The notes beneath the pieces were generated by a model. That model was not told where the DNA came from. It made no database searches and saw only the letters and a program-made list of their open reading frames with translations. From Dehalococcoidia bacterium (lineage in GTDB: Bacteria; Chloroflexota; Dehalococcoidia; Lucifugimonadales; UBA3495), in assembly GCA_965221385.1 (NCBI GenBank), contig OZ244885.1:2709314-2773313 (forward strand): 64,000 nt of DNA. The letters run 5' to 3'. The position numbers and the translations under genes were made by a program. Below, piece by piece: positions 4,232 through 56,858 of this stretch. Position 1 is the first letter of the stretch, and each line of letters opens with the position of its first letter.

Positions 4232-4255
4232 GCCAGGCCGCCCCGTTCCTGCAGG

Positions 4256-7694: not shown

Positions 7695-7733
7695 CTCCGC
7701 GAACCGGGCGCCTACGCCACAATCCGCACAGCC

Positions 7734-7769: not shown

Positions 7770-7854
7770 TGTGGCTCGTATGGGGGTTGTGGCTGCAACG
7801 GCCCTGACCGTGCCCCCAAGCCGAAGGAAAGTTAGCGATGCCTCGTTTGCGGCG

Positions 7855-9099: not shown

Positions 9100-9198
9100 G
9101 GTGTTTCTCGGTTACAGGGCCTGGGATTCTCCTTCCATTGGCATAATGGCCCTTGCCGGCAGTTTAATCGATTGCTGCTTTGGTCAGCCGTCCCCGGC

Positions 9199-20334: not shown

Positions 20335-21213
20335 CTACTTCGCCGGCGGAACCGCCTTGGCCGCCGACTGGTATGTGCCGATGGTCTGTACAAAATACGC
20401 CTGCGCTGGGTAGGGTTGCAAGGCCCTGGTTACTGCCGCGTGTTCCAATTCTGTTGACGGCAGCAGAAATGTGGCGGGCCCAGTGCCGGTCAAGTTGGGT
20501 CGGCGGCCCGTGGCGCGCTCGATGGCTTGCATTATCTCCCCCAATCCTGGGAACTCCCGCACGGCCAGGTCATGGAAGGCGTTGTAAGGGAGGTCGTCGC
20601 TCCAGCAACCGGCCATGGAGTTTTGGACCAGGCGCCGGGTCACGCCGCCGTCGCTGTAGTGGAAGTTGCTCAGTTGCCGGTACATGTGGCTTGTCTTGTC
20701 CGAAACGGACTCCCCCGGACATACCAGGGTTAACGGCGCCCCTGCCCGGGTCGGTAGCGGTTCGATTACCTCCCCGCGGCCGGTAGCCAGGGCGCAGCCG
20801 CCCCAAAGGAAGAAGGGTACATCCGAGCCCAGCCGGGCTGCGATGACGGCCAATTCCCCCAGGGGCAGTTTCGTCCCCCACAGATCGTTCAGGGCCAGGA
20901 GGGCCGCCGCCGCGTCGCTGCTGCCCCCGCCCAGGCCCATGGCCAGGGGAATGTTCTTCCTGACCGTGATCTCTGCCAGGGGCAGGCGACCGGCAGCCCT
21001 CGCCAGTTCCGTAGCCGCTCGCCAAACCAGGTTGTTCTCTCCATCCAGTCCGGGAAGGTCGCACTCCACCCGCAGGGACGATGCGGGCTTGACCTCCAGT
21101 TCATCCCACAGGTCAATGGTCTGCATGACGCTGCGTATCTCGTGATAGCCGTCGTCTCGCCTTCCCAGTACTTCCAGGCAGAGGTTCAGCTTGGCATACG
21201 CCCTAACCCGCAA
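20335..21213 (-). CDS. ispE: 4-diphosphocytidyl-2-C-methyl-D-erythritol kinase
   Basis: AYAKLNLCLEVLGRRDDGYHEI and the GHMP motif IPLAMGLGGGSSDAAA. Start set to TTG 21213 after AAGGAGG. The ORF-track extension lies inside rsmA. Confidence 0.88.
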   Translation of the reverse strand: MRVRAYAKLNLCLEVLGRRDDGYHEIRSVMQTIDLWDELEVKPASSLRVECDLPGLDGENNLVWRAATELARAAGRLPLAEITVRKNIPLAMGLGGGSSDAAAALLALNDLWGTKLPLGELAVIAARLGSDVPFFLWGGCALATGRGEVIEPLPTRAGAPLTLVCPGESVSDKTSHMYRQLSNFHYSDGGVTRRLVQNSMAGCWSDDLPYNAFHDLAVREFPGLGEIMQAIERATGRRPNLTGTGPATFLLPSTELEHAAVTRALQPYPAQAYFVQTIGTYQSAAKAVPPAK

Positions 21214-22084
21214 CCCGATCCTCCTTGCCAACCCTTTCCCCGCTGCCAATGCCGGCAAATTCGTGGCTTTCGGCGACCCGGAACAGGGCCAGCCATTCCT
21301 CCAGGGCCAGGGTTTCCGCGCGCCGGCCGGCGTCCACGCCGGCGGAGGCCAGCAATTGGGCCACTTCGGGGCCGGGCCGGCCCAGGCCGTGGCCCAGGGA
21401 GTTGCGCAACTGCTTGCGGGGCGCGGAAAATCCCGCCCTGACCAGGCTGAAGAAGGACGGGGCCTCGTGCGGTGAAACGACGGGTTGGGGGAGAACATCC
21501 ATGCGCACCACCGCCGAATGCACCTTGGGCGATGGTCGAAAGGCCGCCGGCGGTACTTGGCAAACTATCCTGGCTTGGGCGTAAACCTGGGTGGCCACGG
21601 ACAACAGGGACATCTTCCCGGGGCTGGCCGTCATGCCCTCGGCAACCTCCCGCTGCACCATTACAACCATCCGGCTGGGCGGCCTGGGGGATTCAAGAAA
21701 ACGGCGAATGATGGGGTTGGCCGCGTAGTAGGGCAGGTTGGCCATTACCTTGTATTGCTCGGTGACTCCGAGGAATGGCGCCAAGTCCACGGTCCGGGCG
21801 TCGGCGGCCACAACCGTCAGGTTCTCCGGATTGCCCAGTCTGGCCGGCAGGGCCGAGGCCAGATCAGCATCCAGTTCGAGGGCCAGCAGGCGAGCGACCT
21901 GGGGAAGCAGCTTGCGGGTCAGCGCCCCCCTTCCCGGGCCAATTTCCACCACGAAGTCGTCGCCGTCCAAGTCTCCGGCGGCAAGTATCCTGCCCAGAAT
22001 GCGCTGGTCAACCAGAAAATATTGGCCGAGAGACTTTCGCGGTCCGGCGGGAGGGGGAAGGGATGATGGGGCGGTGGCAGTCAC
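21203..22084 (-). CDS. rsmA: 16S rRNA (adenine1518/1519-N6)-dimethyltransferase
   Basis: PRKSLGQYFLVD and VVEIGPGRGALT SAM motif. Start tentatively GTG 22084, because 22105-22385 is occupied by the SRP RNA. Confidence 0.85.
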   Translation of the reverse strand: MTATAPSSLPPPAGPRKSLGQYFLVDQRILGRILAAGDLDGDDFVVEIGPGRGALTRKLLPQVARLLALELDADLASALPARLGNPENLTVVAADARTVDLAPFLGVTEQYKVMANLPYYAANPIIRRFLESPRPPSRMVVMVQREVAEGMTASPGKMSLLSVATQVYAQARIVCQVPPAAFRPSPKVHSAVVRMDVLPQPVVSPHEAPSFFSLVRAGFSAPRKQLRNSLGHGLGRPGPEVAQLLASAGVDAGRRAETLALEEWLALFRVAESHEFAGIGSGERVGKEDRVAG

Positions 22085-22104: not shown

Positions 22105-22385
22105 GGTGAGAGACCGCGCACCCCCCGTTGACAGAGACCCATTGGACATTACCAGGGCTGCAACTCAAGCCAGGCATTCCCACGGCACCCGCAGGGACCT
22201 GCTTACCGTTGCTTCCTCTCGGACCTGGCGGGGTTCACAAGCCTGCGCCGCGTGGGACCCGGCCATCAACACTGCAAGCCTCGGCCAGTGGTCAACAGGT
22301 ACGGCCGAAGGGGGGAATTACACCCCGCTATAGCGGATTGCGGGTCGAGGGCACCGCTAGCTCCCCGTCTAGCACGGTCTCACCA
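22105..22385 (-). ncRNA. ffs: Signal recognition particle RNA, long (Bacillus-type, Alu + S domain) form
   Basis: The minus strand reads GGUGAGACCGUGCUAGACGGGGAGCUAGCGGUGCCCUCGACCCGCAAUCCGCUAUAGC, matching the Alu-domain 5' region of B. subtilis scRNA recalled from memory. It continues to GCCAGGUCCGAGAGGAAGCAACGGUAAGCAG (domain IV GGAA-type motif). The 5' GGUGAGACCG pairs with the 3' CGGUCUCUCACC. A promoter lies immediately upstream. Confidence 0.85.
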
Positions 22386-22626: not shown

Positions 22627-23505
22627 GTGCAGGTAAGAAAGGCCGTCATTCCCGCCGCAGGATTGGGTACCCGTTTTCTTCCCATCACCAAGTCGGTCCC
22701 CAAGGAGCTATTGCCCATCCTGGACCGACCCATGCTCCAGTACGTGGTGGAGGAGGCAGCCGAAGCCGGGATAGAAGAAGTAATCGTGGTCACTGCCCGG
22801 GGGAAGGAATCCATCGCCGCCTACTTTCAGCCCCGGCTCGACCTGGAAGAGCGGTTGGCGGAAACGGGAGAAACGGCCCTCCTGGCTTCCATCCAACACG
22901 CGTCCAGCCTGGCCCGGGTGTCCTTCGTCATTCAGGAAGAACCCAGGGGATTGGGCCATGCCGTCCTCACCGCCAGGGACGCCGTGGGGGATGAGCCGTT
23001 TGCTGTCATACTGCCGGACGACATCATAGACCATCAGCCGGGGGCGCTTTCCCAAATGCTGGCCGTGGCTGGGGAATACGGTGAAGGCGTGATTGCGGTG
23101 GAACCGGTCCCCTGGTCCTTGGTGCAAAGCTACGGCGTGGTGGAATCCGATGCCGTTGATTCCGGCATCCATAGGGTCAAGGACCTGGTGGAAAAGCCGG
23201 CCCTGGAGGCGGCCCCCTCCAACCTTGCCATCGTGGGTCGATATATTCTGCCACCGGAGATTTTCGACTGCCTGGAACATACCCCGCCCGGGGCCAAGGG
23301 GGAGATTCAGCTTACCGACGGCATACGGAGTCTCCTGCAGCATCGGGACGTCTATGCCTATGAGTTCCAGGGTGTTCGCCATGATGGGGGTTCGCCCCTT
23401 GGATTGCTCCGTGCTTCGCTGGAGTTTGCCCTGGCCAGGGAGGATACCCGACAGCCGGGGCGGGACTTGATTAGGCAATTGAACGAGCGGTTGAATTGCG
23501 AGTGA
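22627..23505 (+). CDS. galU: UTP--glucose-1-phosphate uridylyltransferase
   Basis: GTG start after GGAGG. KAVIPAAGLGTRFLPITKSVPKELLPI and LGHAV motifs. Confidence 0.92.
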   Translation: MQVRKAVIPAAGLGTRFLPITKSVPKELLPILDRPMLQYVVEEAAEAGIEEVIVVTARGKESIAAYFQPRLDLEERLAETGETALLASIQHASSLARVSFVIQEEPRGLGHAVLTARDAVGDEPFAVILPDDIIDHQPGALSQMLAVAGEYGEGVIAVEPVPWSLVQSYGVVESDAVDSGIHRVKDLVEKPALEAAPSNLAIVGRYILPPEIFDCLEHTPPGAKGEIQLTDGIRSLLQHRDVYAYEFQGVRHDGGSPLGLLRASLEFALAREDTRQPGRDLIRQLNERLNCE

Positions 23506-24241: not shown

Positions 24242-24706
24242 CTTGGTCGGGAACTTGGCGAAGATGCTGAGATGCCTGGCGCTTAGCACGTCCGTGCAAC
24301 CGTTGGCTGGCGGCGGCGGGTGGCTTGCCAAGTTACGGTGGCCTGCCCAGATTCTACGTCGTAACTTGACAATAACTGCCCATTTCGGGAGTTTTTGACC
24401 TGAAAATGCCTAGAAATTCCTGGCAATGGTATTTACCATAAGTTGGCGTAACCTCCTCAAATTACCCTGATGAGGTGTCCATCAGGTAATCTCAGTCTTC
24501 CTCTGGAGAATTAATCGGTACCTTCCCGGCATAGTGGGAAGCGAATCTAGCTGGCGCCCCTGATCCATTCTAAAGCGCAACGATCCACAACTTCACGTCA
24601 GAACATCAGATAGATCAAAGTAGTGGGTAACAGGTGAAAATTCGGGAAAGACTTGCAATTGAAGGGCGCTTTTTCAGTTAATGGTTCACCCTGGTAAATG
24701 GGGAGA

Positions 24707-24737
24707 TTGCAAATAGTTCTGGAATGTGTGGTAACAT
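24707..24737 (+). promoter_or_regulatory. Promoter candidate for the giant gene (TTGCAA-N19-TGgTAACAT, extended -10)
   Basis: Lies in the AT-richer 650-bp upstream region. The -10 TAACATTT is the same as at the SRP RNA and tRNA promoters. The spacer is long, so this relies on the TGn extension. Confidence 0.3.
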
Positions 24738-24900
24738 TTAACTTGGAAAAGTGTATATCGCATGAAAGGGGTATCCTGGCTGTGCCGGCAGACGGCCTTC
24801 GAACCGATTGTGGCCAGAGGACATCTGACCCTGGTTTGATACTGTTGATTGGTCAAGCCATGCTCCTGCTTAATCCGAGGGTTGCCATGGGGTCACTTAG

Positions 24901-27900
24901 GTGACAAAGAGTCCTTACCCAGCCCTGGTGGTAATTGCCGTTCTTGCGGCTGTTGCATACCTCATTTTTGCCCTTCCCCTGAGGGCCGAGCAAACTGCGC
25001 CCGGCCTACCTCAGCCCCGCGGGCCCATGCAGGTTGCCGTCGACTATGACAGTGACGACGACGGACTGATTGATGTCGCCAATCTCGCCCAGTTGAACGG
25101 CATTCGTTGGGACCTGGATGGGGATGGCTCCGTTGATGATGCGCAGAACAGCGCGAATTACGCTGCCGCCTTCCCCAACGCAGCAAACGGTATGGGCTGC
25201 AACGAGGACGAGGCGCTGTTGGTTGACCGGGTGTGCGAGGGCTACGAGCTCACCGCCGACCTGAACTTCGATACCAACGATAATGGAATGGCCGATGCTG
25301 GCGACACCTACTGGAACGGTGGCGCGGGCTGGTTGCCCATTGGCGAATACGTGGACGGTACCAACGACCTGCCCTTCATGGCGAGGTTCGACGGGGGCCG
25401 CCACACTATCAGCAATCTGTTCATCAATCGTCCCAGCGCCGATGACGTGGGACTCTTCGGGTTTGCCCGCACTGGCAGCTCATTCCAGAAACTGGGCTTG
25501 GAAGATGTAGATGTGACCGGCGGCGAGGACACGGGTTCGTTGGCGGGTGATGTCCAGAATGGGTACATCAAGCACGTCTATGCCACCGGCGAGGTCGCCA
25601 ACAATAGCTCGTTCCCCAACGGCCCATACGCTGGCGGTTTGGTGGGGAAGCTCGCGGGCAGCGAATTATACGAGAGCTACACCGACGTAGAAGTTTCTTC
25701 CGACGGGTATTCAGGCGGACTGGTCGGCTACCTGTCGGTATTGTCCGACATCAGAGTCAGCTACGCATTAGGCGACGTGGAGGGGGAATACCACAGTGGC
25801 GGTCTGGTAGGTTTCATGCACGGCAGCGAGATAATCAACACCTACGCCACCGGAACCGTGACCGCCCTGGGTACGCAAAGTCCCGGCGGTTTTGTCGGTC
25901 ACGTCGATAGTGTTGAACTACGCAACAGCTACGCCGCAAACCAAGTTATGGGTCCTTTGGCCAGCTTACTGTTGGGAGTGGCCGGGTCCTGGAACTTCAA
26001 CGAACAGGTCGCCAGTGTGCATGAAGAAGTGTACTGGGACACGACCATCGGCCCTCAAACCAGTATCCTGGGTACGGGTCTAACCACTGCGGAAATGCAG
26101 TCTCCCGGACTTAACACGCACAACTTCTGGAGCGCCTCCATTTGGGACTTCGGGACAGCCAGCGAGTACCCGGTACTGAAAGCCGACCTGGACGGAGATG
26201 GCACGGCAACCTGGCAGGAATTCGGCGACCAGCGGCCTACCCAGACTCCTACCCCGACGCCCACGCCGACTTCGACTCCGACGGACACGCCGACACCGGT
26301 TCCGACGGACACGCCCACACCGGTTCCGACGGACACGCCGACACCGGTTCCGACGGACACGCCGACACCGGTTCCGACGGACACGCCGACACCGGTTCCG
26401 ACGGACACGCCGACACCGGTTCCGACGGACACGCCGACACCGGTTCCGACGGACACGCCGACACCGGTTCCGACGGACACGCCGACACCGGTTCCGACGG
26501 ACACGCCAACACCGGTTCCGACGGACACGCCGACACCGGTTCCGACGGACACGCCGACACCGGTTCCGACGGACACGCCAACACCGGCGCCGACAGCGGC
26601 GCCTACAGTCACGCCGGTACCCACTGCCACGCCAACGCCAACTACGCCGACCAGCGCCGACTTCACGCGGGAGGTTAAACGGGAGTACACGTGGCTGCGG
26701 GTTAGTTGGACACCGAGCCAGAGCGCCTTCCCCTTCACCCCTGGTGGTGGGACGACCCAGTTGTATGGAGTGAAGATAGTAACGCTGCCCTTGGAAGGGA
26801 CCCTGCGGCTGAGACCGGTATCCGGCTCTGGGGCATTGGAGAGGAACGTAATAGCGGACGAGACGGTGCCGGTGGAAGAGGTCCAGAGCGGCATTAACAG
26901 GAGAGGATTGGCGTACTACCCGCCCTCGGACGTGACCAGTTCTACATGGACCAGTTTCACATTCAAGGTGGTGGGTTCAAACAGTGGTGGATCTGGAACC
27001 CAGGTGGAGTCTGCTGCCACTTACACTGCCACCCTGACCTTCGATGATGAGATCATAGACTCGCGTCCGGTGTTCAACGCGTTGTCGATAGCAAAGCAGA
27101 CGTTCACAGTGGGACAGGCGGTGAACGACGAATTCGTGTGGTCGAACAGTGGCAACGGGAAGCTGAAGTACTCGATAACCCCAACATTGCCCAGTGGGTT
27201 GATCTACGACGGGGACGGTCCTGATGACAGTGGAGTGGACCAGGGACGGACATCAGCGCCCAGGTTCACGGGAACGCCGTTGGTGGCCTCGGCAGAGGCG
27301 ACGTACACGGTCAGGGTCGATGACACGGACAGCAACACCAGCGATGCGGACTCATTCTCGGTGAGTTTCCAGTTGGAGGTCCTGGCAGCGCCGACTCCGG
27401 TACCCACCGCCACACCGGTTCCGACGGACACGCCAACACCGGTTCCGACGGACACGCCCACCCCGGTTCCGACGGACACGCCCACCCCGGTCCCGACGGA
27501 CACGCCCACGCCGACGCCAACGGACACGCCAACACCGGTCCCGACGGACACGCCAACACCGGTTCCGACGGACACGCCGACACCGGTTCCGACGGACACG
27601 CCAACACCGGTCCCGACGGACACGCCCACCCCCACGCCAACCCTGGCGCCGACGGACACGCCCACGCCCACGCCCACCACGAGCCTGGACACCGACAAAG
27701 AGGCTTTGCGGGCTCTTTACAACGCAACCGACGGAGACAATTGGACGAACAACAGCGGGTGGGATTTCAACACACCCCTCAGCTCCGCCTGGCATGGGGT
27801 AACCGTAAGCAATGGGCGGGTAACCAAGCTGGAGCTTATAAACAATAGTCTGGACGGGTCGCTTCCCGCGAAGTTGGGTGACCTCTCCAAACTAGAGCTT

Positions 27901-30900
27901 TTGGATCTCTCCGTAAACGACGTGAGCGGGTCGATTCCCTCCGAGTTGGGTAACCTCTCAGCTCTCGAGGATTTGATACTGCGACACAACGATTTCACTG
28001 GGTCTATTCCAACCGAGCTGGGCAATCTCTCCAATCTCGATTATCTGGGCCTCGACTCCAACCACTTCAGTGGGTCAATACCCGAAGAGATTGGCAACCT
28101 GAGCAACCTGAGAGAAATTTTCCTCGCGCACAACGACTTCAGTGGCCCAATTCCCGCCAGGCTGGGCGATCTGTCAGAGTTGTTCATTCTTACTCTGAAC
28201 CACACCGATTTATCCGGATCGTTGCCGCCGCAACTCAGTAATTTGACCAAGTTGAACACCTTGTTCGTGCAGGTCACCCAACTTTCCGGCCCGATTCCTG
28301 CCACGTACACAAACTTGACCGCACTATCAAACTTCCACATTGTCAACACCGGCATCTGCATTCCCCCCGGGGATACGGCCCTGACCACATGGTATTCGGG
28401 CATCTTCTTTGTTCAGCCGACCACTGCCCCCATTTGCGGCCAGGTGACACCCACCCCGACGCCAACGGCAACGCCGGTACCTACGGACACGCCCACGCCA
28501 ACCCTGGCGCCGGTACCTACGGATACGCCAACACCATCCCCGGTACCTACGGACACGCCAACACCATCCCCGGTACCTACAGACACGCCCACGCCGGCTC
28601 CGACAGCGACTCCGGCCCCGACGGCCACGCCGACTCCGACAGGCACGCTCACGCCCACCCCCACGCCGGCGGCGCCAACGAGCGCGGACTTCACGGAGAC
28701 GGTGAATAGAGAGTACACGTGGCTACTGGTGAGTCAGTATCCGAGTCTGAGCGTATTCCCGTTTACGGCAGGAGGCGGAGCGACGCAGTTGTACCAGGTG
28801 GTGATCGAGACGCTGCCGGACAAGGGTACGCTGAGGCTGCGACCGGTTGCGGGGTCCCGGGCGATTGAGCGAGACGTGGGGCTGAACGAAGCCGTGGTGG
28901 TGGAAGAGGTTCAGAACAGCCGCAACCGACGGGGCCTGGCGTACTACCCGCCGGAAGATCCAGAGGGATCGACGGGAACGAGTTTCACGTTCAAGGTGAT
29001 AGGGTCGAACAGCAGCTACGGGAACTTGGTAACGTCTGTAGATACGTACACGGCGACGCTGGTGTATGGCAATAGTGTGACCGACTCGAGGCCGGTGTTC
29101 AACACGTTCTCGATAGCGAAGCAGACGTTCACGGTGGGACAGGCGGAGGACCGGGAGTTTGTGTGGTCGAACAGTGGCAACGGGAAGCTGAAGTACAGCA
29201 TCACGCCGGCATTGCCCAGTGGCCTGATTTACGATGGTGACGGACCTGACGACACGGGAGTGGACCAGGGACAGGCATCGGCGCCGAGGTTCACGGGAAC
29301 GCCATTGGTGGCATCGGCGGAGGCCACGTACACGGTTAAGGTAGAGGACACGGACAGCAACACCAGCGACGCGGACAGTCATTCGATTAGTTTCCAGTTG
29401 GAGGTATTGCCAGGGCCGACGCCGACACCGACAGCTACGCCCACGCCGACGCCCACACCGACGGTTACTCCCGCGCCAACACCGACAGACACGCCAACGC
29501 CGGCGCCCACACCTGCGCCGACCAATACGCCGACGCCGGTACCTACAGTCACGCCTACGCCTACCATCACGCCAACCCCGACGCCGGCTACGCCCACCAG
29601 CGAGGACTTCACGTGGCAGGTGAGCAGGCCCTTCACGTGGTTGCCGGTGAAGCGCGGCGGTGGCGCCTTCCCCTTCACCCCGGCGCCGGGCAGCCCAGCT
29701 GACCTCCTGTTTGCCGTCGTCATCGTGGATCTGCCGGCGGAGGGAAAGCTGACGAAGCGGGCCCTTGGCGATGAATCCGTTTTTGTCGAATACGACATTG
29801 AGGCCGGTCATTTCGAGAGAGGGCTTGTGAGGGTGGAAGATCTCCAAAGCATCCCGTTGAGGAGAGGCCTGGCTTACTACCCGCCTGACGTGTCCACATC
29901 GACCAGTACGACCTTCAACTTCAGGGTCATAGCCGCCGACCTTTATTGGCAGTACCAAACTTGGTCTGCTGAAACTTATACCGTTACGTTGGAGTTCACG
30001 GATACTGCTACGCCCACGCCCACTCCGACGGATACCCCGACGCCGACGCTGACGCCAATACCTACGGATACGCCAACGCCCACGCCGACGCCGGTACCGA
30101 CAGACACACCCACGCCCACTCCGACACTGGTACCGACGGCAACGCCAACGCTCACACCCACACCCACGCCGGCCACGCCCATCAGCGCGGACTTCGAGAA
30201 GGAGGTGAGGCGGGAGTACACTTGGCTACCGGTGAGTTGGACACCGTCCAACAGCGCCTTCCCCTTCACCGCTGGTGGTGGGACCACCCAGTTGTATGGG
30301 GTGAAGATAGTAACCCTGCCGTCGGAGGGCTCGCTGAAGCGGAGGCCGTTACCCGGATCTAGGGCGTCGGTAAGGGATGTCGCGGTGGGAGATGTGGTGC
30401 CGGTGGTGGAGGTGCAGAGCAGGCTTTCCCGGAGGGACCTGGCGTACTACCCGCCGGCGGACGTGAGCAGTTTGACGGGGACGAGCTTCACGTTCAAGGT
30501 GGTGGGTTCGGGCAGTGGTGGGTCGGGGAACCGGGTGGAGTCGGCGGCTACCTACACGGCGACGCTGAATTACCATTCTGACATCATAGACTCCCGTCCC
30601 GTACTGAACACGTTCTCAATAGCGAAGCAGACGTTCACGGTGGGACAGGCGGAGGACCGGGAGTTTGTGTGGTCCACCAGTGGCAACGGGAAGCTGAAGT
30701 ACAGCATCACCTCGGCGTTGCCCAGTGGCCTGATTTACGACGGGGATGGACCTGACGACACGGGAGTTGACCAGGGACAGGCATCGGCGCCGAGGTTCAC
30801 GGGAACGCCATTGGTGGCCTCGGCGGAGTCAACGTACACGGTGAAGGTGGAGGACACGGACAGCAACACCAGCGACGCAGACAGTCATTCGATTAGTTTC

Positions 30901-33900
30901 CAGTTGGAGGTATTGCCTGCTCCTCCGCCGACGCCCACGCCGACGCCCACCGCTACGGCAACCCCCACGCCGACGCCGACGCCGGTACCGAACGACTATG
31001 ACCGCGATGACGATGGTTACATCGAAGTCGCCAACCTCGCCCAGCTGAACGCCATTCGTTGGGATCTGGACGGCGACGGGGTGGTGGACGATACAGCCAA
31101 CAGTTCCCTTTACGCCGCCGCATATCCCAATCCCAAGTCTGGCATGGGCTGCAACGAGGACGAGACGCAGGTGTCCAGGCAGGTGTGCGAAGGCTACGAG
31201 CTCACCACCAACATGGACTTCGACACCAATGGCGACGGCAGGACCGACATAGCGGGTGATACCTATTGGAATGGTGGCGCGGGCTGGTTGCCCATCGGCG
31301 ACTACGTGGATGGGACCGACGATCACCCCTTCGAGGCGGTATTTGACGGCAACCGCCACACCATCAGCAATCTGTACATCAACCGTCCCACTCGGAAGGA
31401 CGTCGGGCTATTCGGGTTGGTTAAAGGTGGATTCCAGGCGTTCTTAAACCTGGGGTTGGAAGACGTCAATGTAGTTGGCGGCCAGCACACGGGCTCATTG
31501 GCCGGCGATGTAGAAGGTGGCTACATTAAGCACATCTATGCCACCGGTCAGGTTGAGAGCAAGGGTTCGTTCACCGATGGTTCTTACGCTGGCGGCCTGG
31601 TGGGGAAGCACTCGGGCAGCGAACTGATCGAAAGCTATTCCGAGGTCGATGTCGTTTCTGAGGGTGGCTCGGGCGGTCTGGTGGGCTACCTCCTGGGGTT
31701 CTCAACGATTCGGGGCAGTTACGCCGTTGGCAGTGTGGAAGGAGACTCCCATAGCGGCGGTCTGGTGGGAGACATCGAACAGAGCTTCATCGAACATAGC
31801 TATGCCACCGGTACCGTTACGGTCACCGGTTCGGACCAATACGCCGGTGGCATGGCCGGCCTAACAGACGGATCCGAGTTCAATTACGGCTACGCAGCTG
31901 GCGGAAGCTCCGGCACCCGGGCCGGAGGGGCAATAGGACTGCGATCCAGCAGTGAACAGAAGACAAGCCTGGCGCGCCTGCTCTACTGGGATACCGACTT
32001 GGGTCCCAAAACCAGCGCCCTGGGCAGTGGCAAAACCACCACGCAACTTCAGACGCCCACGTCGGCCACGGACATTTATACTACTTGGAACAGCCAGGGC
32101 GACAGGTGGGACTTCGGGACAACCACCGAGTATCCGGTTTTGAAGGCGGACCTGAACGGTGATGGTACGGCGACCTGGCAGGAATTCGGCGACCAGAGGC
32201 GTGCGCCCACACCGACGCCCACGCCCACGCCCACGGCCACGCCTACGCAGACCCCAACAGTAACGCCGGCGCCGACCGCCACTCCAGTACCGACGCCCAC
32301 GGCAACGCCGGCCCCGACAGCGACTCCGGCCCCGACGGCTACGCTCACGCCTACACCTACGCCGGCGACGCCCAGCAGCGCGGACTTCGAGAAGGAGGTG
32401 AGGCGGGAGTACACCTGGTTGCCGGTGAGTTGGACGCCGTCCAACAGCGCCTTCCCCTTCACGCCTGGCGGTGGAACGACCCAGTTGTATGGAGTGAAGA
32501 TAGTAACGCTGCCGGATGAGGGGTCGTTGAAGCGGAGACCGGTACCCGGATCAAGGGCGTCGGTGGTTGATGTTTCCGTGGGCGATACGGTGGTGGTGTT
32601 GGAGTTTCAGAGCCGGCTTGCCCGGAGGGACCTGGCGTACTACCCGCCGGCGGACGTGAGCAGTTCAACTGGGACGAGTTTCACGTTCAAGGTGGTGGGA
32701 TCGGGCAGTAATGGATTGGGGAACAAGGTGGAGTCGGCGGATACTTACACGGCAACGCTGAAGTACCATTCTGACATCATAGACTCGAGGCCGGTGTTCA
32801 ACACGTTCTCGATAGCGAAGCAGACGTTCACGGTGGGACAGGCGGAGGACCGGGAGTTCGTGTGGTCCACCAGTGGCAACGGGAAGCTGAAGTACAGCAT
32901 CACGCCGGCGTTGCCCAGTGGCCTGATTTACGATGGTGACGGGCCTGACGACACCGGAGTTGATCAGGGACAGGCATCGTCGCCCAGGTTCACGGGAACG
33001 CCATTGGTGGCATCGGCAGAGTCAACGTACACGGTGAAGGTGGAGGACACGGACAGCAACACCAGCGACGCAGACAGTCATTCCATTAGTTTCCAGTTGG
33101 AGGTATTGCCAGGGCCTACGCCAACACCCACGAACACGCCAGAGCCGACCAACACGCCGGTACCGACTGCCACGCCAACCGATACACCCACGCCCACGCC
33201 TACGGACACTCCGACGCCATCGCCAACCCCGACGGATACGCCAACCCCGACGGCCACGCCAGTACCGACCGCGACGCCGACGGATACGCCCACGCCCACG
33301 CCGGCGACGCCCAGCAGTGCGGACTTTGAGAAGGAGGTGAGGCGGGAGTACACGTGGCTGCCGGTGAGTTGGACGCCGTCCAACAGCGCCTTCCCCTTCA
33401 CGCCTGGCGGTGGAACGACCCAGTTGTATGGAGTGAAGATAGTAACGCTGCCGGATGAGGGGTCGTTGAAGCGGAGACCGGTACCCGGATCAAGGGCGTC
33501 GGTGGTTGATGTTTCCGTGGGCGATACGGTGGTGGTGTTGGAGTTTCAGAGCCGGCTTGCCCGGAGGGACCTGGCCTACTACCCGCCGGCGGACGTGAGC
33601 AGTTCAACTGGGACTAGTTTCACCTTCAAGGTGGTGGGATCGGGCAGTGGTGGATCGGGGAACAAGGTGGAGTCGGCGGATACGTACACGGCGACGCTGA
33701 AGTACCATTCTGACATAATAGACTCGCGTCCGTTGTTCAACACGTTCTCAATAGCGAAGCAGACGTTCACGGTGGGGCAGGCGGAGGACCGGGAGTTCGT
33801 GTGGTCGAACAGTGGCAACGGGAAACTGAAGTACAGCATCACGCCGGCATTGCCCAGTGGGCTGATTTACGACGGGGACGGACCTGACGACACCGGAGTG

Positions 33901-36276
33901 GATCAGGGACAGGCATCGTCGCCGAGGTTCACGGGAACGCCATTGGTGGCATCGGCGGAGTCAACGTACACGGTGAAGGTGGAGGACACGGACAGCAACA
34001 CCAGCGACGCGGACAGCCATTCCATTAGTTTCCAGTTGGAGGTATTGCCAGGGCCGACCCCGACACCCACGAACACGCCAGAGCCGACCAACACGCCGGT
34101 ACCGACTGCCACGCCAACCGATACACCCACGCCAACGCCGACGGATACTCCGACGCCGACTCCGACGGATACGCCCACGCCGACTCCGACGGATACGCCC
34201 ACGCCGACTCCGACGGATACGCCCACGCCGACGCCGACGGATACTCCGACGCCGACTCCGACGGATACGCCCACGCCGACTCCGACGGATACGCCCACGC
34301 CGACGCCGACGGATACGCCCACGCCGACGCCGACGGATACGCCCACGCCGACTCCGACGGATACGCCCACGCCGACGCCGACGGATACGCCCACGCCGAC
34401 GCCGACGGATACGCCCACGCCGACTCCGACGGATACTCCGACGCCGACGCCAACGGATACCCCGACGCCAACGCCGACGGATACCCCGACGCCAACGCCG
34501 ACGGATACGCCCACGCCAACACCGACGGATACTCCGACGCCGACTCCGACGGATACGCCCACGCCGACTCCGACGGATACGCCGACGCCGACACCGACGG
34601 ATACGCCGACGCCGACACCGACGGATACGCCGACGCCGACACCGACGGATACGCCGACGCCAACGCCGACGGATACGCCGACGCCAACGCCGACGGATAC
34701 TCCGACGCCAACGCCGACGGATACTCCGACACCAACGCCGACGGATACCCCGACGCCGACACCGACGGATACTCCGACGCCAACGCCGACGGATGCGCCG
34801 ACTGCGACGCCGGAGCCGACGGTACCCCCGACAGCGACGCCGGAGCCGACGGTACCCCCGACAGCGACGCCGGAGCCGACGGTACCCCCGACGGCCACGC
34901 CGGAGCCGACGGTACCCCCGACGGCCACGCCGGAGCCGACGGTACCCCCGACGAACACGCCGGCACCGACTGCGACGCCAGATCCGACGAACACGCCGGC
35001 ACCGACTGCGACACCTGATCCGACGAACACGCCGGCACCGACTGCGACGCCTGATCCGACGAACACGCCGGCACCGACTGTGACACCTGATCCGACGAAC
35101 ACGCCGGCACCGACTGCGACGCCTGATCCGACGAACACGCCGGCACCGACTGCGACGCCTGATCCGACGAACACGCCGGCACCGACTGCGACGCCTGATC
35201 CGACGAACACGCCGGCACCGACTGCGACACCTGATCCGACGAACACGCCGGCACCGACTGCGACACCTGATCCGACGAACACGCCGGCACCGACTGCGAC
35301 ACCTGATCCGACGAACACGCCGGCACCGACTGCGACGCCTGATCCGACGAACACGCCGGCACCGACTGCGACGCCTGATCCGACGAACACGCCCGCACCC
35401 ACGGCCACACCGGCACCCACTTCGGCGCCGACGGCCACGCCTGGCTCGGGGTCGCCTGATCCGACGAACACGCCGGTGCCGACGAACACGCCCGCACCCA
35501 CAGCCACTAACGTGCCGACGCCGACGCCGGACGACGACGATGATGATGACCGCAGAGACCCACCAACAAGGCCCGGTCCCATATCGCCGCCGGTATCGCA
35601 GCCTACCAGCACGCCACGTCCTGCGCCGTCGGTCGTTCCGACGCCAACCAGCCTGGTTCCTACGGCCACGCCCGCCAGCGTAGCCCCGACGACTACGCCG
35701 ACCGGTCAGTCGCCCACACCTCCGGCCACGGCGGGACTGACGCCAACACCAACCCAGGTGGGGCAACCGGTGACGGCTGAGCCTCCGGTGACGTTGGCGC
35801 CAACCGATAACACCCCCACTCCCACGGGAGACGGTAGCGGTAACGGAGGCGTTGGCACCGTCACGCCAACCCCAACGCCAACTCCAATCCCGTCCTCCTT
35901 GGGAGTCGAAATTACGACGCCCGTACCCATGCCCGCCATAACCGTAATCGTTCCGCCGAATGTCCGGGCAACTGAACTGACATCGTCAGCCACCCTTGCC
36001 CAAACGCCGACGGCAACTGTTACTCCCACACCGGCCATTCCGGCGCCGCCAACAATTGCAATTTCGCCCATACAGACTCCGGGCCCACCGGCCCAAACGC
36101 CCAGCATATTGCTGCCGGACATTCCTCTGATTGGCGCAGCCGTGGAACGGGGACGAGAGACCATCCGGTCCGCCGTGGCAACGCCACGTCAACGCATCAC
36201 GCTGGTCACTTCCCTTCTCATCATGGGCTTGCTGGCGGCAATAGTGTTCGCGTACCTGGTCTGGCGCCGACGTTAG
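24901..36276 (+). CDS. Giant (3,791 aa) modular cell-surface protein: signal/TM, 2x GLUG-repeat domain, LRR, 6x cadherin-like/Ig-like module, PT linkers, C-terminal TM anchor
   Basis: Single uninterrupted ORF starting at GTG. N-terminal [21 protein letters not shown] and C-terminal [26 protein letters not shown]. Domain evidence is listed in the sub-features. Confidence 0.9.
25042..26235 (+). other. Giant protein domain: Asp-rich Ca-binding-like loops + GLUG-motif repeat (copy 1)
   Basis: [12 protein letters not shown]...[11 protein letters not shown]. Repeated GGLVG/GGFVG units ([32 protein letters not shown]). Ends with [22 protein letters not shown]. Confidence 0.7.
26281..26592 (+). repeat. 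In-frame 24-bp tandem array, 13 units (TDTPTPVP)
   Basis: Units counted directly from ACGGACACGCCGACACCGGTTCCG. Only 1-2 synonymous differences per unit. Confidence 0.95.
26653..27384 (+). other. Module R1 (244 aa): cadherin-like beta-sandwich half + putative Ig (He_PIG/dystroglycan-type) half
   Basis: [15 protein letters not shown]...[17 protein letters not shown]...LAYYPPSDV...SFTFKVVGS, then [11 protein letters not shown]...[18 protein letters not shown]...[22 protein letters not shown]. Confidence 0.6.
27424..27639 (+). repeat. In-frame 24-bp tandem array, 9 units (TDTPTP[V/T]P)
   Basis: Same unit as array 26281-26592, counted directly. Confidence 0.95.
27682..28446 (+). other. Plant-specific-type leucine-rich repeat cassette with LRRNT-like cap
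   Basis: Cap is [21 protein letters not shown]...[16 protein letters not shown]. About eight 24-residue repeats follow, of the form LxxLxxLxLxxNxxSGSIPxELGN. Confidence 0.8.
28681..29409 (+). other. Module R2 (243 aa)
   Basis: [17 protein letters not shown]...[15 protein letters not shown]...LAYYPPEDP...FTFKVIGS plus the Ig-like half. Confidence 0.6.
29599..30003 (+). other. Module R3: divergent, truncated (first half only, 135 aa)
   Basis: [17 protein letters not shown]...[15 protein letters not shown]...[11 protein letters not shown]...FNFRVIAAD. The Ig-like half is absent. Confidence 0.55.
30184..30915 (+). other. Module R4 (244 aa)
   Basis: [56 protein letters not shown]... plus the Ig-like half. 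Confidence 0.6.
30991..32199 (+). other. Asp-rich loops + GLUG-motif repeat domain (copy 2)
   Basis: [13 protein letters not shown]...[11 protein letters not shown], then [32 protein letters not shown], ending in [22 protein letters not shown]. Clearly a paralog of copy 1 but diverged. Confidence 0.7.
32377..33108 (+). other. Module R5 (244 aa)
   Basis: Same bipartite module. Nearly identical to R6. Confidence 0.6.
33316..34047 (+). other. Module R6 (244 aa)
   Basis: Offset exactly 939 bp from R5. Only a handful of amino-acid differences (NGLG/GGSG, PVFN/PLFN, STSG/SNSG). Confidence 0.6.
34117..34788 (+). repeat. In-frame 24-bp tandem array, 28 units (TDTPTPTP)
   Basis: 672 bp divided by 24, counted from the sequence. 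Units differ only at synonymous third positions and occur in runs of identical variants. Confidence 0.93.
34801..34950 (+). repeat. In-frame 30-bp tandem array, 5 units ([10 protein letters not shown])
   Basis: AC(T/A/G)GC(G/C)ACGCCGGAGCCGACGGTACCCCCG repeated five times. Confidence 0.93.
34951..35418 (+). repeat. In-frame 36-bp tandem array, 12 units + 1 degenerate ([12 protein letters not shown])
   Basis: ACGAACACGCCGGCACCGACTGCGAC(G/A)CC(T/A)GATCCG repeated. One unit has a TVTP variant. Confidence 0.93.
35530..36276 (+). other. C-terminal region: Asp7 run, about 215 aa of Pro/Thr/Ala-rich low complexity, TM helix (36196-36264), RRR tail
   Basis: [12 protein letters not shown], then PT-rich non-repetitive sequence, then [26 protein letters not shown]-stop. 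Confidence 0.8.
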
Positions 36277-40250: not shown

Positions 40251-41261
40251 ATGCGCAGTATCGACATCCACGCCCACACCTTTACGCCTACCATGTTGAA
40301 GACCATGGCCGCGGGCCAGGAATGGTACGGCATGAAATACACGGACGCCGACCAGCGTACCATCTTCGTTCGCGATGGCAAGCTGGTGGCGGTGAACCCC
40401 AAGTGCCGGTACACCCCGGAGGAACGGGTGGCGGACATGGACCAGCTGGGTACCGAGGTTCAGGTGGTGGCCATTCATACCCCCGTCTTCGGCTACCATC
40501 TCTCTCCCGCCGACGGCGTGGCCCAGGCGCGGGAGGTTAACGACGACATTGCCGGCTTCGTGCGGGAGGCGCCAACCAGGTTCGCCGGAATGGCAACCCT
40601 GCCCATGCAGGACGTGAACGCCGCCATCGCCGAACTGGACCGGGCCGTCAACACCCTGGGATTGAAGGGCGCGGAACTGGACACAGTGGTGAACGGCAAG
40701 ACCTGGGACGAGCCGGAGTTTCTCCCCTTCTTCAAGGCCGCGGAGTCCATGGGCGCCACCCTGTTCTACCATCCCCAGCCCCAGCATAATCTGATGCTGG
40801 AGCGTACCAACAAGTACGGGCTGAACAACTCCGTGGGCGTGCCGGTGGAGGATACACTCCTGGTGGCGGCCCTGATCTACGGCGGGGTGATGGAAAACTG
40901 CCCCGACCTGAAGGTGTGCGTAGCCCATGGTGGCGGTCCCGCCTGCTTCGGCATGGGCCGCATGGACCGGGGTTGGCAGGTAAGGTCCGAGGCGCGGGTT
41001 AACATAACCCGCCCTCCCAGCTACTACCAGAGCCGCCTCTACTACGACATCGTGGTTATGAGCGAGCGGTCTCTGCGGTTCCTGATCGACCAGGTGGGCA
41101 TCGAGAGGGTGGTTCTGGGCAGCGACTATCCCTTTGTCGGCTGGGATCCCTCTCCAACGGGTTGGCTCCAGAGTCTGGAGAGCATCACCCAGGAAGAAAA
41201 GGACATGATACTGTGGAAGAACCTGGAAAAGCTACTGGGCATCGAAACCAGCGGAACTTAG
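40251..41261 (+). CDS. Amidohydrolase_2 / ACMSD-like metal-dependent decarboxylase/hydrolase (paralog 2)
   Basis: MRSIDIHAHTFTP, VCVAHGGG and LGSDYPF. The first 18 nt are identical to paralog 1. Confidence 0.82.
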   Translation: MRSIDIHAHTFTPTMLKTMAAGQEWYGMKYTDADQRTIFVRDGKLVAVNPKCRYTPEERVADMDQLGTEVQVVAIHTPVFGYHLSPADGVAQAREVNDDIAGFVREAPTRFAGMATLPMQDVNAAIAELDRAVNTLGLKGAELDTVVNGKTWDEPEFLPFFKAAESMGATLFYHPQPQHNLMLERTNKYGLNNSVGVPVEDTLLVAALIYGGVMENCPDLKVCVAHGGGPACFGMGRMDRGWQVRSEARVNITRPPSYYQSRLYYDIVVMSERSLRFLIDQVGIERVVLGSDYPFVGWDPSPTGWLQSLESITQEEKDMILWKNLEKLLGIETSGT

Positions 41262-41338: not shown

Positions 41339-43393
41339 ATGAACAATCTCTGGTCGGATAGCGAAGTCCAGTCCCTCGATGAACTGGACAAACTGGTCTA
41401 TATGAGCCGCCTCATCGGGGCCGACCCGTCTCTGGTGGTTTGGGGTGGCGGCAACACCTCCATAAAGATCACGGAGCAGGATTTCCTGGGCCGGGACGTC
41501 CAGGTCATGCGTATCAAGGGCTCCGGGTCGGACCTGAAGTCCATGGAACGCTGGCAGTTCCCCCGGTTGGAACTGGAGAAGGTGTTGCCGGTCTTTGAGC
41601 GGGAGCAAATGTCCGACGAGGAAATGGTGGACTACCTGGACCGATGCGTTCTCGACCCCAACTCGCCCCGCCCTTCCATCGAAACTCTGCTCCATGCCTT
41701 CCTGCCGTTTCACAGTGTGGCCCACTCCCACGCCGATGCAGTGGTTGGCCTGACCAACAACCGGGACGCGGACGCCATCCTACGGCGGGTTTACGGCGAC
41801 AATGTGGGAATCGTGGAGTACCTGCGACCTGGATTCCAACTCTCCAAGCTGGTGGGAATGGCCGTCAAGGAAGCGCCCGGCCTCGACGGGGTGGTGCTGG
41901 TTAACCATGGTCTGTTCACCTGGGGCAACGACGCCAAGGAGGCTTATGACCGGCACATAGACCTGGTTAGTAAGGCGGAAGAATTCGCCGCCGCCGGCAC
42001 GGGTCGCGGGTTTGGTGGCTGGCAGCGCAATCCCTTGGCCGCGGACCGGCGTAGGGAAATCGCCGCGGCCGTGGCCCCAACCCTGCGGGGGCTGGTCAGT
42101 CAGCAGCGCCGGTCCGTGCTCCGGTTCGACGATGCCGAGGACGTGCTGGAATTCACCGGGTCTGAGGAGGGCCAGCGACTGAGCGCCATCGGCCCGGCCA
42201 CGCCGGACCATCTGATTCACACCAAGCGCCGGCCCCTGTGGCTGGCAGTGGACGATCCGGAGGATGTGGATGGGGTTAAGGCAGAACTGCGCCGGGGCAT
42301 GGCGGCCTATGCCGAAGAGTATGCCTCCTGGTACCAGCAGCACACCACCGGCGAAGACTCCATGCTGGACCCCTACCCCCGCGTAATCCTGCTGCCCGGC
42401 GTGGGCATGTGGACCACCGGTCGCGACGCGCGGGCCTCGCTGATCACTAACGACATCTATCACCACACGATTAACGTTCTGCGCACTGCCCAGGCCGTCA
42501 GCGACTACACCTCCCTCACTCCGAAGGACGCCTACGATGCCGAATACTGGCCCCTGGAGCTTTACAAGCTGACCCTGGCCCCGCCGGAGAAGGAACTGGC
42601 CCGCCGAGTTGCTCTGGTTACCGGGGCCGCCAGTGGCATTGGCAAGGTTATCGCCGAGACGCTGGCCAACCAGGGAGCCCACGTTATCGTCACCGACCGG
42701 GACGCGGAGGGGGCGCAGGATGTGGCCGCCGGCATCAACCGCGCCGCTGGGCCCGAGCGGGCCGCCGCCTTTCCTATGGACGTGGCGAACCCGGATCACG
42801 TGGGCCGGGTGTTCCAGTCCCTGCGCCAAACCTATGGCGGGCTGGACATCCTGGTTTCCAACGCGGGTATTGCCCCGGTGGGCGCCATCGACCAGCTTTC
42901 CCTGGAGGAGTGGCAGCGGTCCCTGGACATCAATACCACCGGCCACTTCCTGGTTTCCGCCGAAGCCGTGAAGCTGATGAAGGAACAGGGAATCGGAGGC
43001 AGCCTGGTTTTCATCGGCACCAAGAACGTGCCGGCGCCGGGGGCCGAGTTTGGCGCCTACAGTGTGTCCAAGGCCGCCGAGGTCCAGTTGGCGCGGGTCC
43101 TGGCCCTGGAGAACGGGCAGCACGGTATTCGGGTGAATGTGGTCAATCCCGATGCCATCTTTCAGGGTTCCCAACTATGGTCCCAGGAGTTGCGGGAGGA
43201 ACGCGCCGCCGCCCACGGGGTTACCGTGGATGGACTGGAGGACTTCTACCGCCAGCGAAACCTGCTCAAAGCCCGGGTCTTGGCGGAGGACGTGGCGGAG
43301 ACGGTTTTGTTCCTGGCCTCAGACCGCTCGGCCAAGACCACCGGCGCCATGATTCCGGTGGATGGCGGCGTGCGGGAGGCTTTTCCCCGATAG
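41339..43393 (+). CDS. Bifunctional class II aldolase/adducin-domain + short-chain dehydrogenase (rhamnulose-1-P aldolase/alcohol dehydrogenase-like)
   Basis: N-terminal aldolase-type domain (GGGNTS...KGSG...HAD). C-terminal SDR domain (VTGAASGIGK, NAG, YSVSKAA). Confidence 0.85.
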   Translation: MNNLWSDSEVQSLDELDKLVYMSRLIGADPSLVVWGGGNTSIKITEQDFLGRDVQVMRIKGSGSDLKSMERWQFPRLELEKVLPVFEREQMSDEEMVDYLDRCVLDPNSPRPSIETLLHAFLPFHSVAHSHADAVVGLTNNRDADAILRRVYGDNVGIVEYLRPGFQLSKLVGMAVKEAPGLDGVVLVNHGLFTWGNDAKEAYDRHIDLVSKAEEFAAAGTGRGFGGWQRNPLAADRRREIAAAVAPTLRGLVSQQRRSVLRFDDAEDVLEFTGSEEGQRLSAIGPATPDHLIHTKRRPLWLAVDDPEDVDGVKAELRRGMAAYAEEYASWYQQHTTGEDSMLDPYPRVILLPGVGMWTTGRDARASLITNDIYHHTINVLRTAQAVSDYTSLTPKDAYDAEYWPLELYKLTLAPPEKELARRVALVTGAASGIGKVIAETLANQGAHVIVTDRDAEGAQDVAAGINRAAGPERAAAFPMDVANPDHVGRVFQSLRQTYGGLDILVSNAGIAPVGAIDQLSLEEWQRSLDINTTGHFLVSAEAVKLMKEQGIGGSLVFIGTKNVPAPGAEFGAYSVSKAAEVQLARVLALENGQHGIRVNVVNPDAIFQGSQLWSQELREERAAAHGVTVDGLEDFYRQRNLLKARVLAEDVAETVLFLASDRSAKTTGAMIPVDGGVREAFPR

Positions 43394-44373: not shown

Positions 44374-44473
44374 AATCGCAAACCTCCTTGATGTGCCCGG
44401 CCGGGCACAAGTGCGATTTTGGCGAGGCAGAGGCAATCTTGCCCCATATACTAGGGAAGGCCTCTTTCCGCCA

Positions 44474-56854: not shown

Positions 56855-56858
56855 ACCT

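Follow-up and report, generated by a model that had tools for sequence, protein, structure and literature searches.

A giant mosaic surface protein of a Dehalococcoidia bacterium, probably a stalked and membrane-anchored adhesin, contains a two-domain module found in several phyla

Very long proteins in which tandem immunoglobulin (Ig)-like or cadherin-like beta-sandwiches, often stiffened by Ca2+, hold binding domains off the cell include the RTX adhesins (LapA/MpIBP), SiiE, Ebh, and Bap. Another related group is that of the eukaryotic-like proteins of sponge symbionts, which were reportedly treated by Reynolds and Thomas in 2016. In metagenome-assembled genomes (MAGs) from sponges, cadherin, fn3, and leucine-rich repeat (LRR) or other eukaryote-like repeat proteins have been found to be enriched and laterally transferred (Robbins et al. 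2021, PMC8163846). The display of such eukaryote-like or adhesion domains is believed to be how sponge symbionts persist, and the actual molecules are largely uncharacterized, one reason being that short-read assemblies break inside genes of this kind. Here we describe an 11.4-kb gene in a stretch of 64,000 nt from a Dehalococcoidia bacterium (assembly GCA_965221385.1, contig OZ244885.1, positions 2,709,314 to 2,773,313 of the forward strand), hereafter the window. The 3,791-aa product of this gene is probably an accessory, membrane-anchored, and stalked adhesin of the eukaryotic-like-protein kind, made by a sponge-associated, Dehalococcoidia-like bacterium. That it is a surface-exposed binding protein can be proposed with greater assurance than this full description, and that it binds a host component with less. 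The window thereby gives a complete Dehalococcoidia-like example with a clear predicted topology and defined, expressible domains.

When compared with the described systems, the protein was found to share features with each and to differ from each. As in the giant Ig-repeat adhesins, tandem Ig/cadherin-like sandwiches would hold binding domains away from the cell; however, the protein differs from these adhesins in that (i) RTX repeats, a type I secretion signal, a beta-barrel, and LPXTG are missing; (ii) its domains are spaced by long Pro/Thr-rich (PT) linkers and do not abut; and (iii) a C-terminal membrane helix serves as the predicted anchor. RTX repeats, a type I secretion signal, and an outer-membrane beta-barrel were searched for with Pfam and NCBIfam models without a match, and the C-terminus is a single helix. 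As the defining features of these classes were each tested and found wanting, the protein is not assigned to the RTX, autotransporter, or LPXTG class. With the eukaryotic-like classes known from sponge symbionts (LRR, cadherin, fn3, and NHL; PMC8163846) it has in common an LRR of plant/animal type, cadherin-like domains, an accessory position, signs of lateral exchange among taxa that live together, and a lineage with close relatives in a sponge metagenome. The studies of those proteins count Pfam domains per genome; neither the domain order seen here nor the GLUG cassettes, the helix-anchored PT stalk, or the 244-aa module described below, which Pfam misses, is included in them. We found no publication on such an architecture or module, and literature on the MAG accessions, on Ca. 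Azophilus, and on GLUG/He_PIG yielded nothing useful.

The giant gene is real. Its open reading frame (ORF) starts with GTG, has no internal stop codon, and takes up 17.8% of the window, in agreement with the single uninterrupted frame of about 18% on which the original prediction was based. The G+C content at third codon positions (GC3) is 0.72 for the whole gene, compared with 0.58 to 0.82 for the surrounding genes; this match, together with the strong domain matches detailed below, identifies a true coding sequence and not a chance ORF. That the window belongs to a contig of 2,906,306 bp was also counted toward the gene being real. The original prediction had further noted that the nonrepeat parts are less GC-rich than the flanking genes. 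This was borne out for the folded parts (58.9% GC versus 61.8 ± 1.5%); however, their GC3 of 73.6% equals that of the neighbors, so the deficit is explained by amino-acid composition and there is no sign of foreign DNA. A foreign origin based on the low GC was thus dismissed. The linker and low-complexity residues amount to about 1,275 in total, of which 37% are Thr and 35% are Pro (72% combined). On the opposite strand, three antisense ORFs of 490 to 601 aa (33903 to 35766, − strand) lie within the PT minisatellite and are artefacts of ACGCCG-type repeats, not genes. The AT-richer region of about 650 bp that had been described upstream of the gene was likewise recovered (Table 1), and within it neither an Rfam family, even at E ≤ 1 (riboswitch and small RNA being looked for), nor a sigma-70-like promoter site by consensus scan was detected.

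The order of domains from N- to C-terminus was rederived and came out the same as previously proposed: a GLUG cassette, module R1, an LRR cassette, modules R2 to R4, a second GLUG cassette, modules R5 and R6, and a long PT stalk with low-complexity sequence that leads to the C-terminal helix. At the protein level the full modules are 74 to 98% identical to one another, and the regions of R5 and R6, linkers included, are 93.6% identical over 935 bp by local DNA alignment. Only two hydrophobic segments were revealed by Kyte-Doolittle analysis of the protein, one at each extreme end. The N-terminal segment has an n-h-c layout with a helix-breaking Pro and an AxA-like site (LRA↓EQ), and thus looks like a cleavable Sec signal peptide; matching sites (AVA↓QG and AWA↓QV) follow the N-terminal segments of two Dehalococcoidia paralogues, L002 and L003, both encoded on contig OZ244879.1. 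At the C-terminus, one helix precedes RRR and the stop codon, and the same arrangement closes L002 (IGYLIWRRR) and L003 (GYYLLRRR). With AxA-like sites in the window protein and in both paralogues, anchoring at the C-terminus alone is the likelier arrangement, and the protein is probably held only by the C-terminal helix and RRR; the earlier proposal that it is anchored at both ends is therefore not favored.

By Pfam criteria, the protein is a genuine member of both the GLUG and the LRR class. On the whole protein the Glug model (PF07581) reached 51.7 bits in four stretches (cut-off 20.5), and on cassette 1 alone 43.9 bits, in keeping with the two GLUG domains, and the Asp-rich loops at the first of them, that had been predicted. 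Each cassette starts with two DxDxDG loops spaced 21 residues apart (aa 50 and 71 in cassette 1; aa 2034 and 2055 in cassette 2), and the loop that closes the cassette is an exact DxDxDG in the first (DLDGDG, aa 429) and a variant in the second (DLNGDG). These loops resemble the Ca2+ loops of EF-hands and dockerins, with EF-hand models matching at E = 0.13 to 7 only. The cassette of about 400 aa is common, and a search at E ≤ 1e-10 recovered over 1,163 proteins with it; most of these are unnamed, and the few that are named are annotated as "hypothetical protein" of Dehalococcoidia/Chloroflexi MAGs. Cassette 1 is 82% identical to aa 1519 to 1924 of L003, and a cassette related to the second is carried by L004 (OZ244903.1). 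The sole PDB sequence match of the GLUG region is a weak one (E = 7e-4 over about 130 residues) to chain residues 177 to 315 of the Streptococcus pneumoniae IgA1 protease (6XJA/6XJB/7JGJ). These residues lie in the beta-helix of the N-terminal domain, a domain that contacts the Fab of the IgA1 substrate (PMC7695701). The likeness to this protease, ZmpA (PDB 6XJA; PMC7695701), lies in the alignment of the GLUG repeats to its beta-helix; unlike ZmpA, the giant protein has neither an M26 protease domain nor a G5 domain, and its cassette is flanked by DxDxDG loops.

The LRR cassette passed the Pfam models LRR_14 (61.5 bits; cut-off 40), LRR_1 (57.6 bits; cut-off 20.6), and LRR_8 (48.2 bits; cut-off 27). 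Its best 40 PDB sequence matches are all ectodomains of plant LRR receptors, including GSO1 (3.9e-163, summed over repeats), FLS2, MIK2, HAESA, and PEPR1, so the label "plant-type" given to the cassette originally is correct. For the LRRNT_2 model, also named in the original prediction, no match was obtained at E ≤ 10; in the cap region, LRR_10 covered cassette aa 8 to 55 at 19.7 bits, below its threshold of 30, and several PDB alignments begin at query residues 17 to 33. The cassette shares 24-residue repeats, the LxGxIP signature, and, putatively, an N-terminal cap with the plant LRR receptor kinases (GSO1, FLS2, MIK2, and HAESA), but has only about eight repeats, no kinase, and no adjoining membrane helix, and is embedded in a mosaic. 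Its identity to aa 2014 to 2269 of L003 is 71%.

The 244-aa module, the unit that recurs most often in the protein, had no Pfam or PDB sequence match at E ≤ 10. Its structure was predicted for copy R4, which gave a pLDDT of 39.5 when run as a single sequence and of 86 when AlphaFold (AF2) was supplied with a 13-sequence alignment (A1). The structure prediction that had been proposed for one module thus produced a model with two tandem beta-sandwich domains. When this model was compared with the PDB by Foldseek, the best match was the Ig-like region of the glycoside hydrolase family 107 (GH107) endo-fucoidanase MfFcnA4, followed by tandem extracellular cadherin (EC) domains of cadherin-23, protocadherin, and E-cadherin (E ~1e-6 to 3e-5, probability 1.0). 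Word-indexed searches with the module recovered one and then three proteins, all short fragments, and missed the giant ones; an exhaustive HMMER search was used instead. Among 1.84 billion cluster representatives, this search found 325 proteins at E ≤ 1e-3; in nearly all of these the match is confined to the second half (about aa 130 to 250). The second half matches repeat after repeat of one protein, P0005, at E = 1e-111, and Pfam assigns 18 He_PIG stretches to P0005 and 11 to P0002. By this homology to He_PIG arrays, the second half is a divergent He_PIG-type Ig domain. The first half (ModA) is rare, being present in about 11 proteins among the best 150 matches; among these same 150, the complete two-domain module occurs in four proteins (P0002, P0003, P0004, and P0012) and, cut by the sequence end, in two fragments (P0024 and P0028).

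Curated models tested directly on the module gave little. For He_PIG (PF05345), R1 and R3 had no match at E ≤ 10, and one of the 13 sequences in A1 matched at E = 0.0013. A Pfam scan of all A1 sequences returned isolated, subthreshold matches to He_PIG (0.0013), Big_13, Big_9, and Cadherin_5, in one member each. No Cadherin-family Pfam model matches the window copies, the Cadherin_5 match (E = 0.027) being to an A1 member from outside the window. The canonical Ca2+ motifs of cadherins (DxNDN, DxD, and LDRE) are absent; the module has acidic loops of a different kind, and its second half carries a YDGDGPDD loop. The original view that a cadherin-like half is paired with a He_PIG/Ig-like half in each module is thus correct as far as predicted fold and remote homology are concerned, as indicated by AlphaFold/Foldseek and by the He_PIG homology of the second half; nonetheless, neither the He_PIG nor the cadherin Pfam models match the window copies directly, and by this direct test the module belongs to no curated family.

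To place the module, we used its alignment to scan one genome per GTDB species; the scan depends on two peptide patterns, so absence elsewhere is unproven. It found 22 loci, nearly all from MAGs that a single sequencing project produced (OZ2448xx and CBDC… accessions). Two of the carriers are Dehalococcoidia (76% and 63% identity); the others belong to Longimicrobiales (Gemmatimonadota), Nitrospirales, Thermodesulfobacteriota, Rhodobacterales and other Alphaproteobacteria, and Arenicellales, Ca. Azophilus, and other Gammaproteobacteria, with two weak matches in Bacteroidota that cover only the first half of the module. We infer that these taxa are typical of high-microbial-abundance sponges. 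The search for proteins with the same domain order recovered two Dehalococcoidia paralogues of the same layout, L002 and L003, in which the order and number of parts differ. L002 has fn3, six modules, a PT stalk, and the helix with RRR. The ORF of L003, of at least 4,788 aa, encodes He_PIG/fn3, several GLUG regions, a GLUG cassette, an LRR, six modules, a PT stalk, and the helix with RRR. Its likeness to the window protein (82% in the GLUG cassette, 71% in the LRR, and up to 90% in its modules) contrasts with its extra N-terminal He_PIG, fn3, and GLUG regions, its GLUG-LRR pair without an intervening module, and its complete R3-type module. The window protein is set apart from the paralogues by the insertion of R1 before the LRR, a second GLUG cassette in midprotein, and a truncated R3. 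Thus, as judged from the sequences, the parts list and topology are conserved among the Dehalococcoidia paralogues and the order is shuffled. A fragment of a further close homologue, L001 (ENA ERZ25072670, 4x coverage), is split by frameshifts into three ORFs and has a complete R3-type module; the frameshifts are probably sequencing errors due to the low coverage.

In the other phyla, the modules lie in frames that are open across entire 20-kb loci. Two such loci of a Thermodesulfobacteriota MAG, L010 and L011 (OZ244851.1, 744188 to 779037), overlap, are each open from end to end, and carry several modules; their overlap implies a single ORF of more than 34 kb (>11,000 aa). In a neighbor-joining tree, all Dehalococcoidia copies, those of the window included, formed one clade that is about 50% identical to every other copy. 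The copies from the other phyla intermixed, with 88% protein identity between Nitrospirales and Ca. Azophilus. At the DNA level, a Nitrospirales locus (L013) was found to be 91% identical to one of Ca. Azophilus (L016) over 5.5 kb (4496 to 9972 versus 3437 to 8931), and 91.6% identical to one of another gammaproteobacterium (L018) over 4.1 kb (4496 to 8600 versus 5822 to 9932). DNA identity of about 91% across phyla suggests recent interphylum exchange of segments of these giant genes. No IMG/VR viral contig encodes the module, when carriage by phage was looked for. Among the proteobacterial He_PIG giants, many have RF or RW as their last residues, like outer-membrane beta-barrels, and the Chloroflexota ones end in a helix and a basic tail; such lineage-appropriate anchors on the same passenger domains lend independent support to surface display. 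This cross-phylum sharing of the module and of multikilobase segments is more surprising than the window gene and lies mostly outside the window. A tentative explanation, which we consider possible but somewhat doubtful, is that the 244-aa unit is an adhesion cassette specific to this niche, passed from phylum to phylum within a sponge-type microbial community. If so, unrelated symbionts would converge on one shared ligand, probably a component of the host matrix or cell surface, and the cassette would be displayed from an anchor particular to each lineage, which in Chloroflexota is a membrane helix and in Gram-negatives an outer-membrane barrel. The module is missed by domain libraries, and only a handful of the 1.84 billion representatives carry it in full, yet it is near-identical in places across phyla. 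Should it bind a host component, it would offer a handle on how diverse bacteria recognize the same animal host and an example of horizontal transfer of adhesin parts at the subgene level.

The genomic context of the gene is consistent with an accessory status. The synteny break was found through a 90%-identical relative, P0287. Window positions 36577 to at least 50138 are collinear with a related lineage (L024, L025, and L026; many assemblies), at 76 to 79% nucleotide identity. This collinearity starts immediately 3′ of the giant gene, and in the relatives a xanthine/uracil permease and IS110 and DDE transposases are found there. Located at a synteny breakpoint, the giant gene behaves as accessory DNA. 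No synteny was detected between the window flanks and the Dehalococcoidia loci L002 to L004. The host lineage appears to be a sponge-associated, Dehalococcoidia-like member of the Chloroflexota: (i) the clusters at ≥90% identity of an amidohydrolase (40251 to 41261) and an aldolase/SDR fusion (41339 to 43393) include named Chloroflexota MAG proteins; (ii) the product of 40251 to 41261 is 94.6% identical to a protein from the whole-genome shotgun set LXNJ01, which is the metagenome of the Mediterranean sponge Petrosia ficiformis (Horn et al. 2016, PMC5099237); and (iii) the closest relatives of the domains of the giant protein are in Dehalococcoidia MAGs.

Taken as an adhesin, the protein would be exported by Sec through its N-terminal signal peptide, which would then be removed. 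The C-terminal helix would stop transfer and leave RRR in the cytoplasm and the rest outside, a type I topology suggested by the sequence, the positive-inside rule, and conservation in the paralogues. The approximately 700 aa of Pro/Thr-rich low complexity next to the anchor would form an extended stalk through and beyond the envelope, and the short PT linkers would act as spacers; the composition is observed, and the extended conformation is expected from the known behavior of Pro/Thr linkers. Displayed on this stalk would be two GLUG beta-helix cassettes, one LRR solenoid, and 5.5 modules, corresponding to eleven cadherin-like/Ig-like sandwiches. Such an array may give multivalent and probably Ca2+-dependent binding to proteins or glycans of a matrix or of other cells. 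In view of the findings of Robbins et al. on sponge MAGs (PMC8163846), its likeliest role would be to attach to the matrix or cells of a host or to neighboring cells, or to be recognized by them. The gene would be part of the flexible genome, with its domains shuffled among paralogues and its module shared with giant surface proteins of unrelated bacteria, seemingly from a community of the same type. The adhesin-like reading of the original prediction is supported here, as are the mosaic and PT stalks behind it. O-glycosylation of the PT stretches is conjecture.

Two other functions were considered for the same domains. The protein may be a structural one of the envelope or matrix, joining conspecific cells homophilically, in the manner of cadherins, as part of an S-layer, sheath, or biofilm scaffold, and recognizing no host. 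Tandem cadherin-like folds, loops of the Ca2+ type, and a very large predicted contour length are all in keeping with this, as are the paralogues with six near-identical modules in a related genome, and such domains could also serve attachment between bacteria (Robbins et al., PMC8163846). We nevertheless regard a structural role as unlikely, for S-layer proteins are usually conserved and located in the core, whereas collinearity breaks at the giant gene and the related lineage does not have it at the corresponding site; in addition, heterophilic binding is typical of LRR and GLUG cassettes, and the canonical Ca2+ linker motifs of cadherins were not seen. A cellulosome-like scaffold for substrate capture, in which PT linkers and dockerin-like loops would tether glycan-binding Ig-like domains and hold sponge or algal polymers, is considerably less probable still. 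Its appeal lies in the best Foldseek match of the module, which is to the Ig-like region of a GH107 fucoidanase, in the paired DxDxDG loops that open the GLUG cassettes, each followed by a short amphipathic stretch in the manner of dockerins, and in the PT linkers, which are classic in glycoside hydrolases. However, no catalytic, cohesin, dockerin, or carbohydrate-binding module model matched the protein, the EF-hand matches being those given above, and no glycoside hydrolase genes adjoin the giant gene.

The C-terminus and the assembly each invite a different reading as well. The helix and basic tail may be a sorting signal, with a transpeptidase (sortase, exosortase, or archaeosortase-like) cutting near TPRQR(I/N)TL and the protein being covalently attached to the wall or S-layer, or released. 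A motif, a helix, and a basic tail mirror known sorting signals: TPRQRITL (36175 to 36198, aa 3759 to 3766) lies directly before the helix, TPRQRNTL is at the same position in L002, and all three Dehalococcoidia proteins end in RRR. The tail of L002, though without an LPXTG motif, barely passed LPXTG_anchor (16.6 versus the cut-off of 15.9 bits), and it has weak matches to JDVT-CTERM and GVDTG-CTERM. Set against this, no NCBIfam sorting-signal model passed for the window tail (LPXTG_anchor, 9.0 versus 15.9 bits, E = 2.3), no LPXTG, PEP, PGF, or other known signature is present, L003 is without the TPRQR motif, the 64-kb window has no sortase-like gene, and a plain stop-transfer anchor would also consist of a helix and basic residues. 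Sorting is thus put on a par with the structural role, as improbable. That the gene is an artefact of assembly (repeats collapsed, expanded, or misjoined), or a pseudogene that appears intact, is highly improbable. Long near-identical repeats, such as R5 and R6 with 98% protein identity, and hundreds of minisatellite codons could mislead an assembler, and L001, the relative at 4x coverage, is visibly frameshifted; however, the frame runs for 11.4 kb without a stop codon and has the codon bias of the genome, the R5 and R6 regions are distinguishable by about 6% DNA differences, and intact ORFs of the same architecture occur in independent chromosome-level relatives. The copy numbers of the minisatellites could be wrong without altering the overall reading.

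A membrane-anchored adhesin thus remains our preferred interpretation, and several points weigh against it. The hydrophobic core of the N-terminal segment, at 20 residues, is also compatible with an uncleaved anchor; the Foldseek TM-scores of the two-domain model are low (0.26 to 0.36), which is attributed to matches with single domains by a two-domain query that has a free hinge; and the link of the GLUG cassette to a beta-helix is the weak sequence match (E = 7e-4) reported above. In addition, the connection to sponges comes from the relative of one neighboring protein and the set of taxa involved, the envelope type of the host lineage is assumed, and no glycosyltransferase or dedicated export gene is nearby, which leaves glycosylation as speculation.

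Table 1. Features of the giant gene and its upstream region in the 64,000-nt window
Feature	Position (nt)	Strand	Residues (aa)	Basis or remarks
Upstream intergenic region, AT-richer, 659 bp	24242..24900	+		GC 49.5% vs 61.4% for window; presumed promoter and leader
Whole giant gene, 3,791-aa mosaic protein (predicted surface protein)	24901..36276	+		ORF translation, codon composition, domain matches
Predicted signal peptide	24901..24990	+	1-30	Hydrophobic core aa 8-27, then LRA↓EQ; Kyte-Doolittle maximum 2.83; cleavage inferred
GLUG cassette 1	25030..26238	+	44-446	DxDxDG loop pair, GLUG-repeat region, closing DLDGDG loop
PT linker 1	26239..26652	+	~447-584	24-bp minisatellite, 14 copies
Module R1	26653..27384	+	585-828	ModA + ModB, two tandem beta-sandwiches (predicted)
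Plant-type LRR cassette	27673..28446	+	925-1182	Putative N-terminal cap; C-terminal Cys pair; Pfam and PDB matches
Module R2	28681..29409	+	1261-1503	90% identical to L003 module at aa 2330
Module R3	29599..30000	+	1567-1700	Divergent ModA only, ModB missing; orthologous R3-type modules complete in L003 and L001
Module R4	30184..30915	+	1762-2005	Copy used for structure prediction; model md19b8065ea79, pLDDT 86
GLUG cassette 2	30988..32208	+	2030-2436	62% identical to cassette 1; ~60% to L003 and L004 cassettes
Module R5	32377..33108	+	2493-2736	
Module R6	33316..34047	+	2806-3049	98% protein identity to R5
C-proximal PT stalk, ~490 aa	34048..35529	+	~3050-3543	Minisatellites 24 bp x29.6, 30 bp x5.8, 36 bp x12.6
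Asp7 run and low-complexity region	35530..36198	+	3544-3550 (Asp7)	~215 aa rich in Pro/Thr/Ala/Val; TPRQRITL before helix
C-terminal transmembrane helix (predicted), RRR tail, stop	36199..36276	+	~3767-3787 (helix)	Kyte-Doolittle maximum 2.55

The genes around the giant gene are those of an ordinary bacterial chromosome, with an alanyl-tRNA synthetase (AlaRS), two FabF-like synthases, RecJ, Lgt, a signal recognition particle (SRP) RNA, and three tRNAs in the window. One flank encodes RecJ, Lgt, a GHMP kinase, a sugar-phosphate nucleotidyltransferase, and DUF4386, and the other an alpha/beta-hydrolase, a B12-radical-SAM protein, two amidohydrolases, and the aldolase/SDR fusion. Within five genes on either side, no sortase, secretion-system, or glycosyltransferase gene was found, which confirms the earlier statement that no dedicated secretion, sortase, or glycosylation genes adjoin. 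The GHMP-family kinase (20335 to 21498, − strand) and the sugar-phosphate nucleotidyltransferase (22627 to 23505, + strand) lie just upstream of the giant gene and, as a pair, could make an activated sugar. An SRP RNA of the large bacterial type (22114 to 22377, − strand; 175 bits) is located two genes upstream. Downstream is a cluster of three tRNAs (56779 to 57029, + strand), the last of which is overlapped by a mechanically called ORF (56999 to 59110); this overlap places the true start of the ORF further downstream. A gene at 43498 to 44559 (− strand) encodes an NHL-repeat beta-propeller protein, of a repeat class reported as "eukaryotic-like" in sponge symbionts, and syntenic relatives have two such genes adjacent. 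Finally, the N-terminus encoded by a 667-aa ORF at 48910 to 50913 (− strand) is hydrophobic, and the product contains a short stretch rich in Pro/Thr/Ala and matches no Pfam family; it may be another exported protein.

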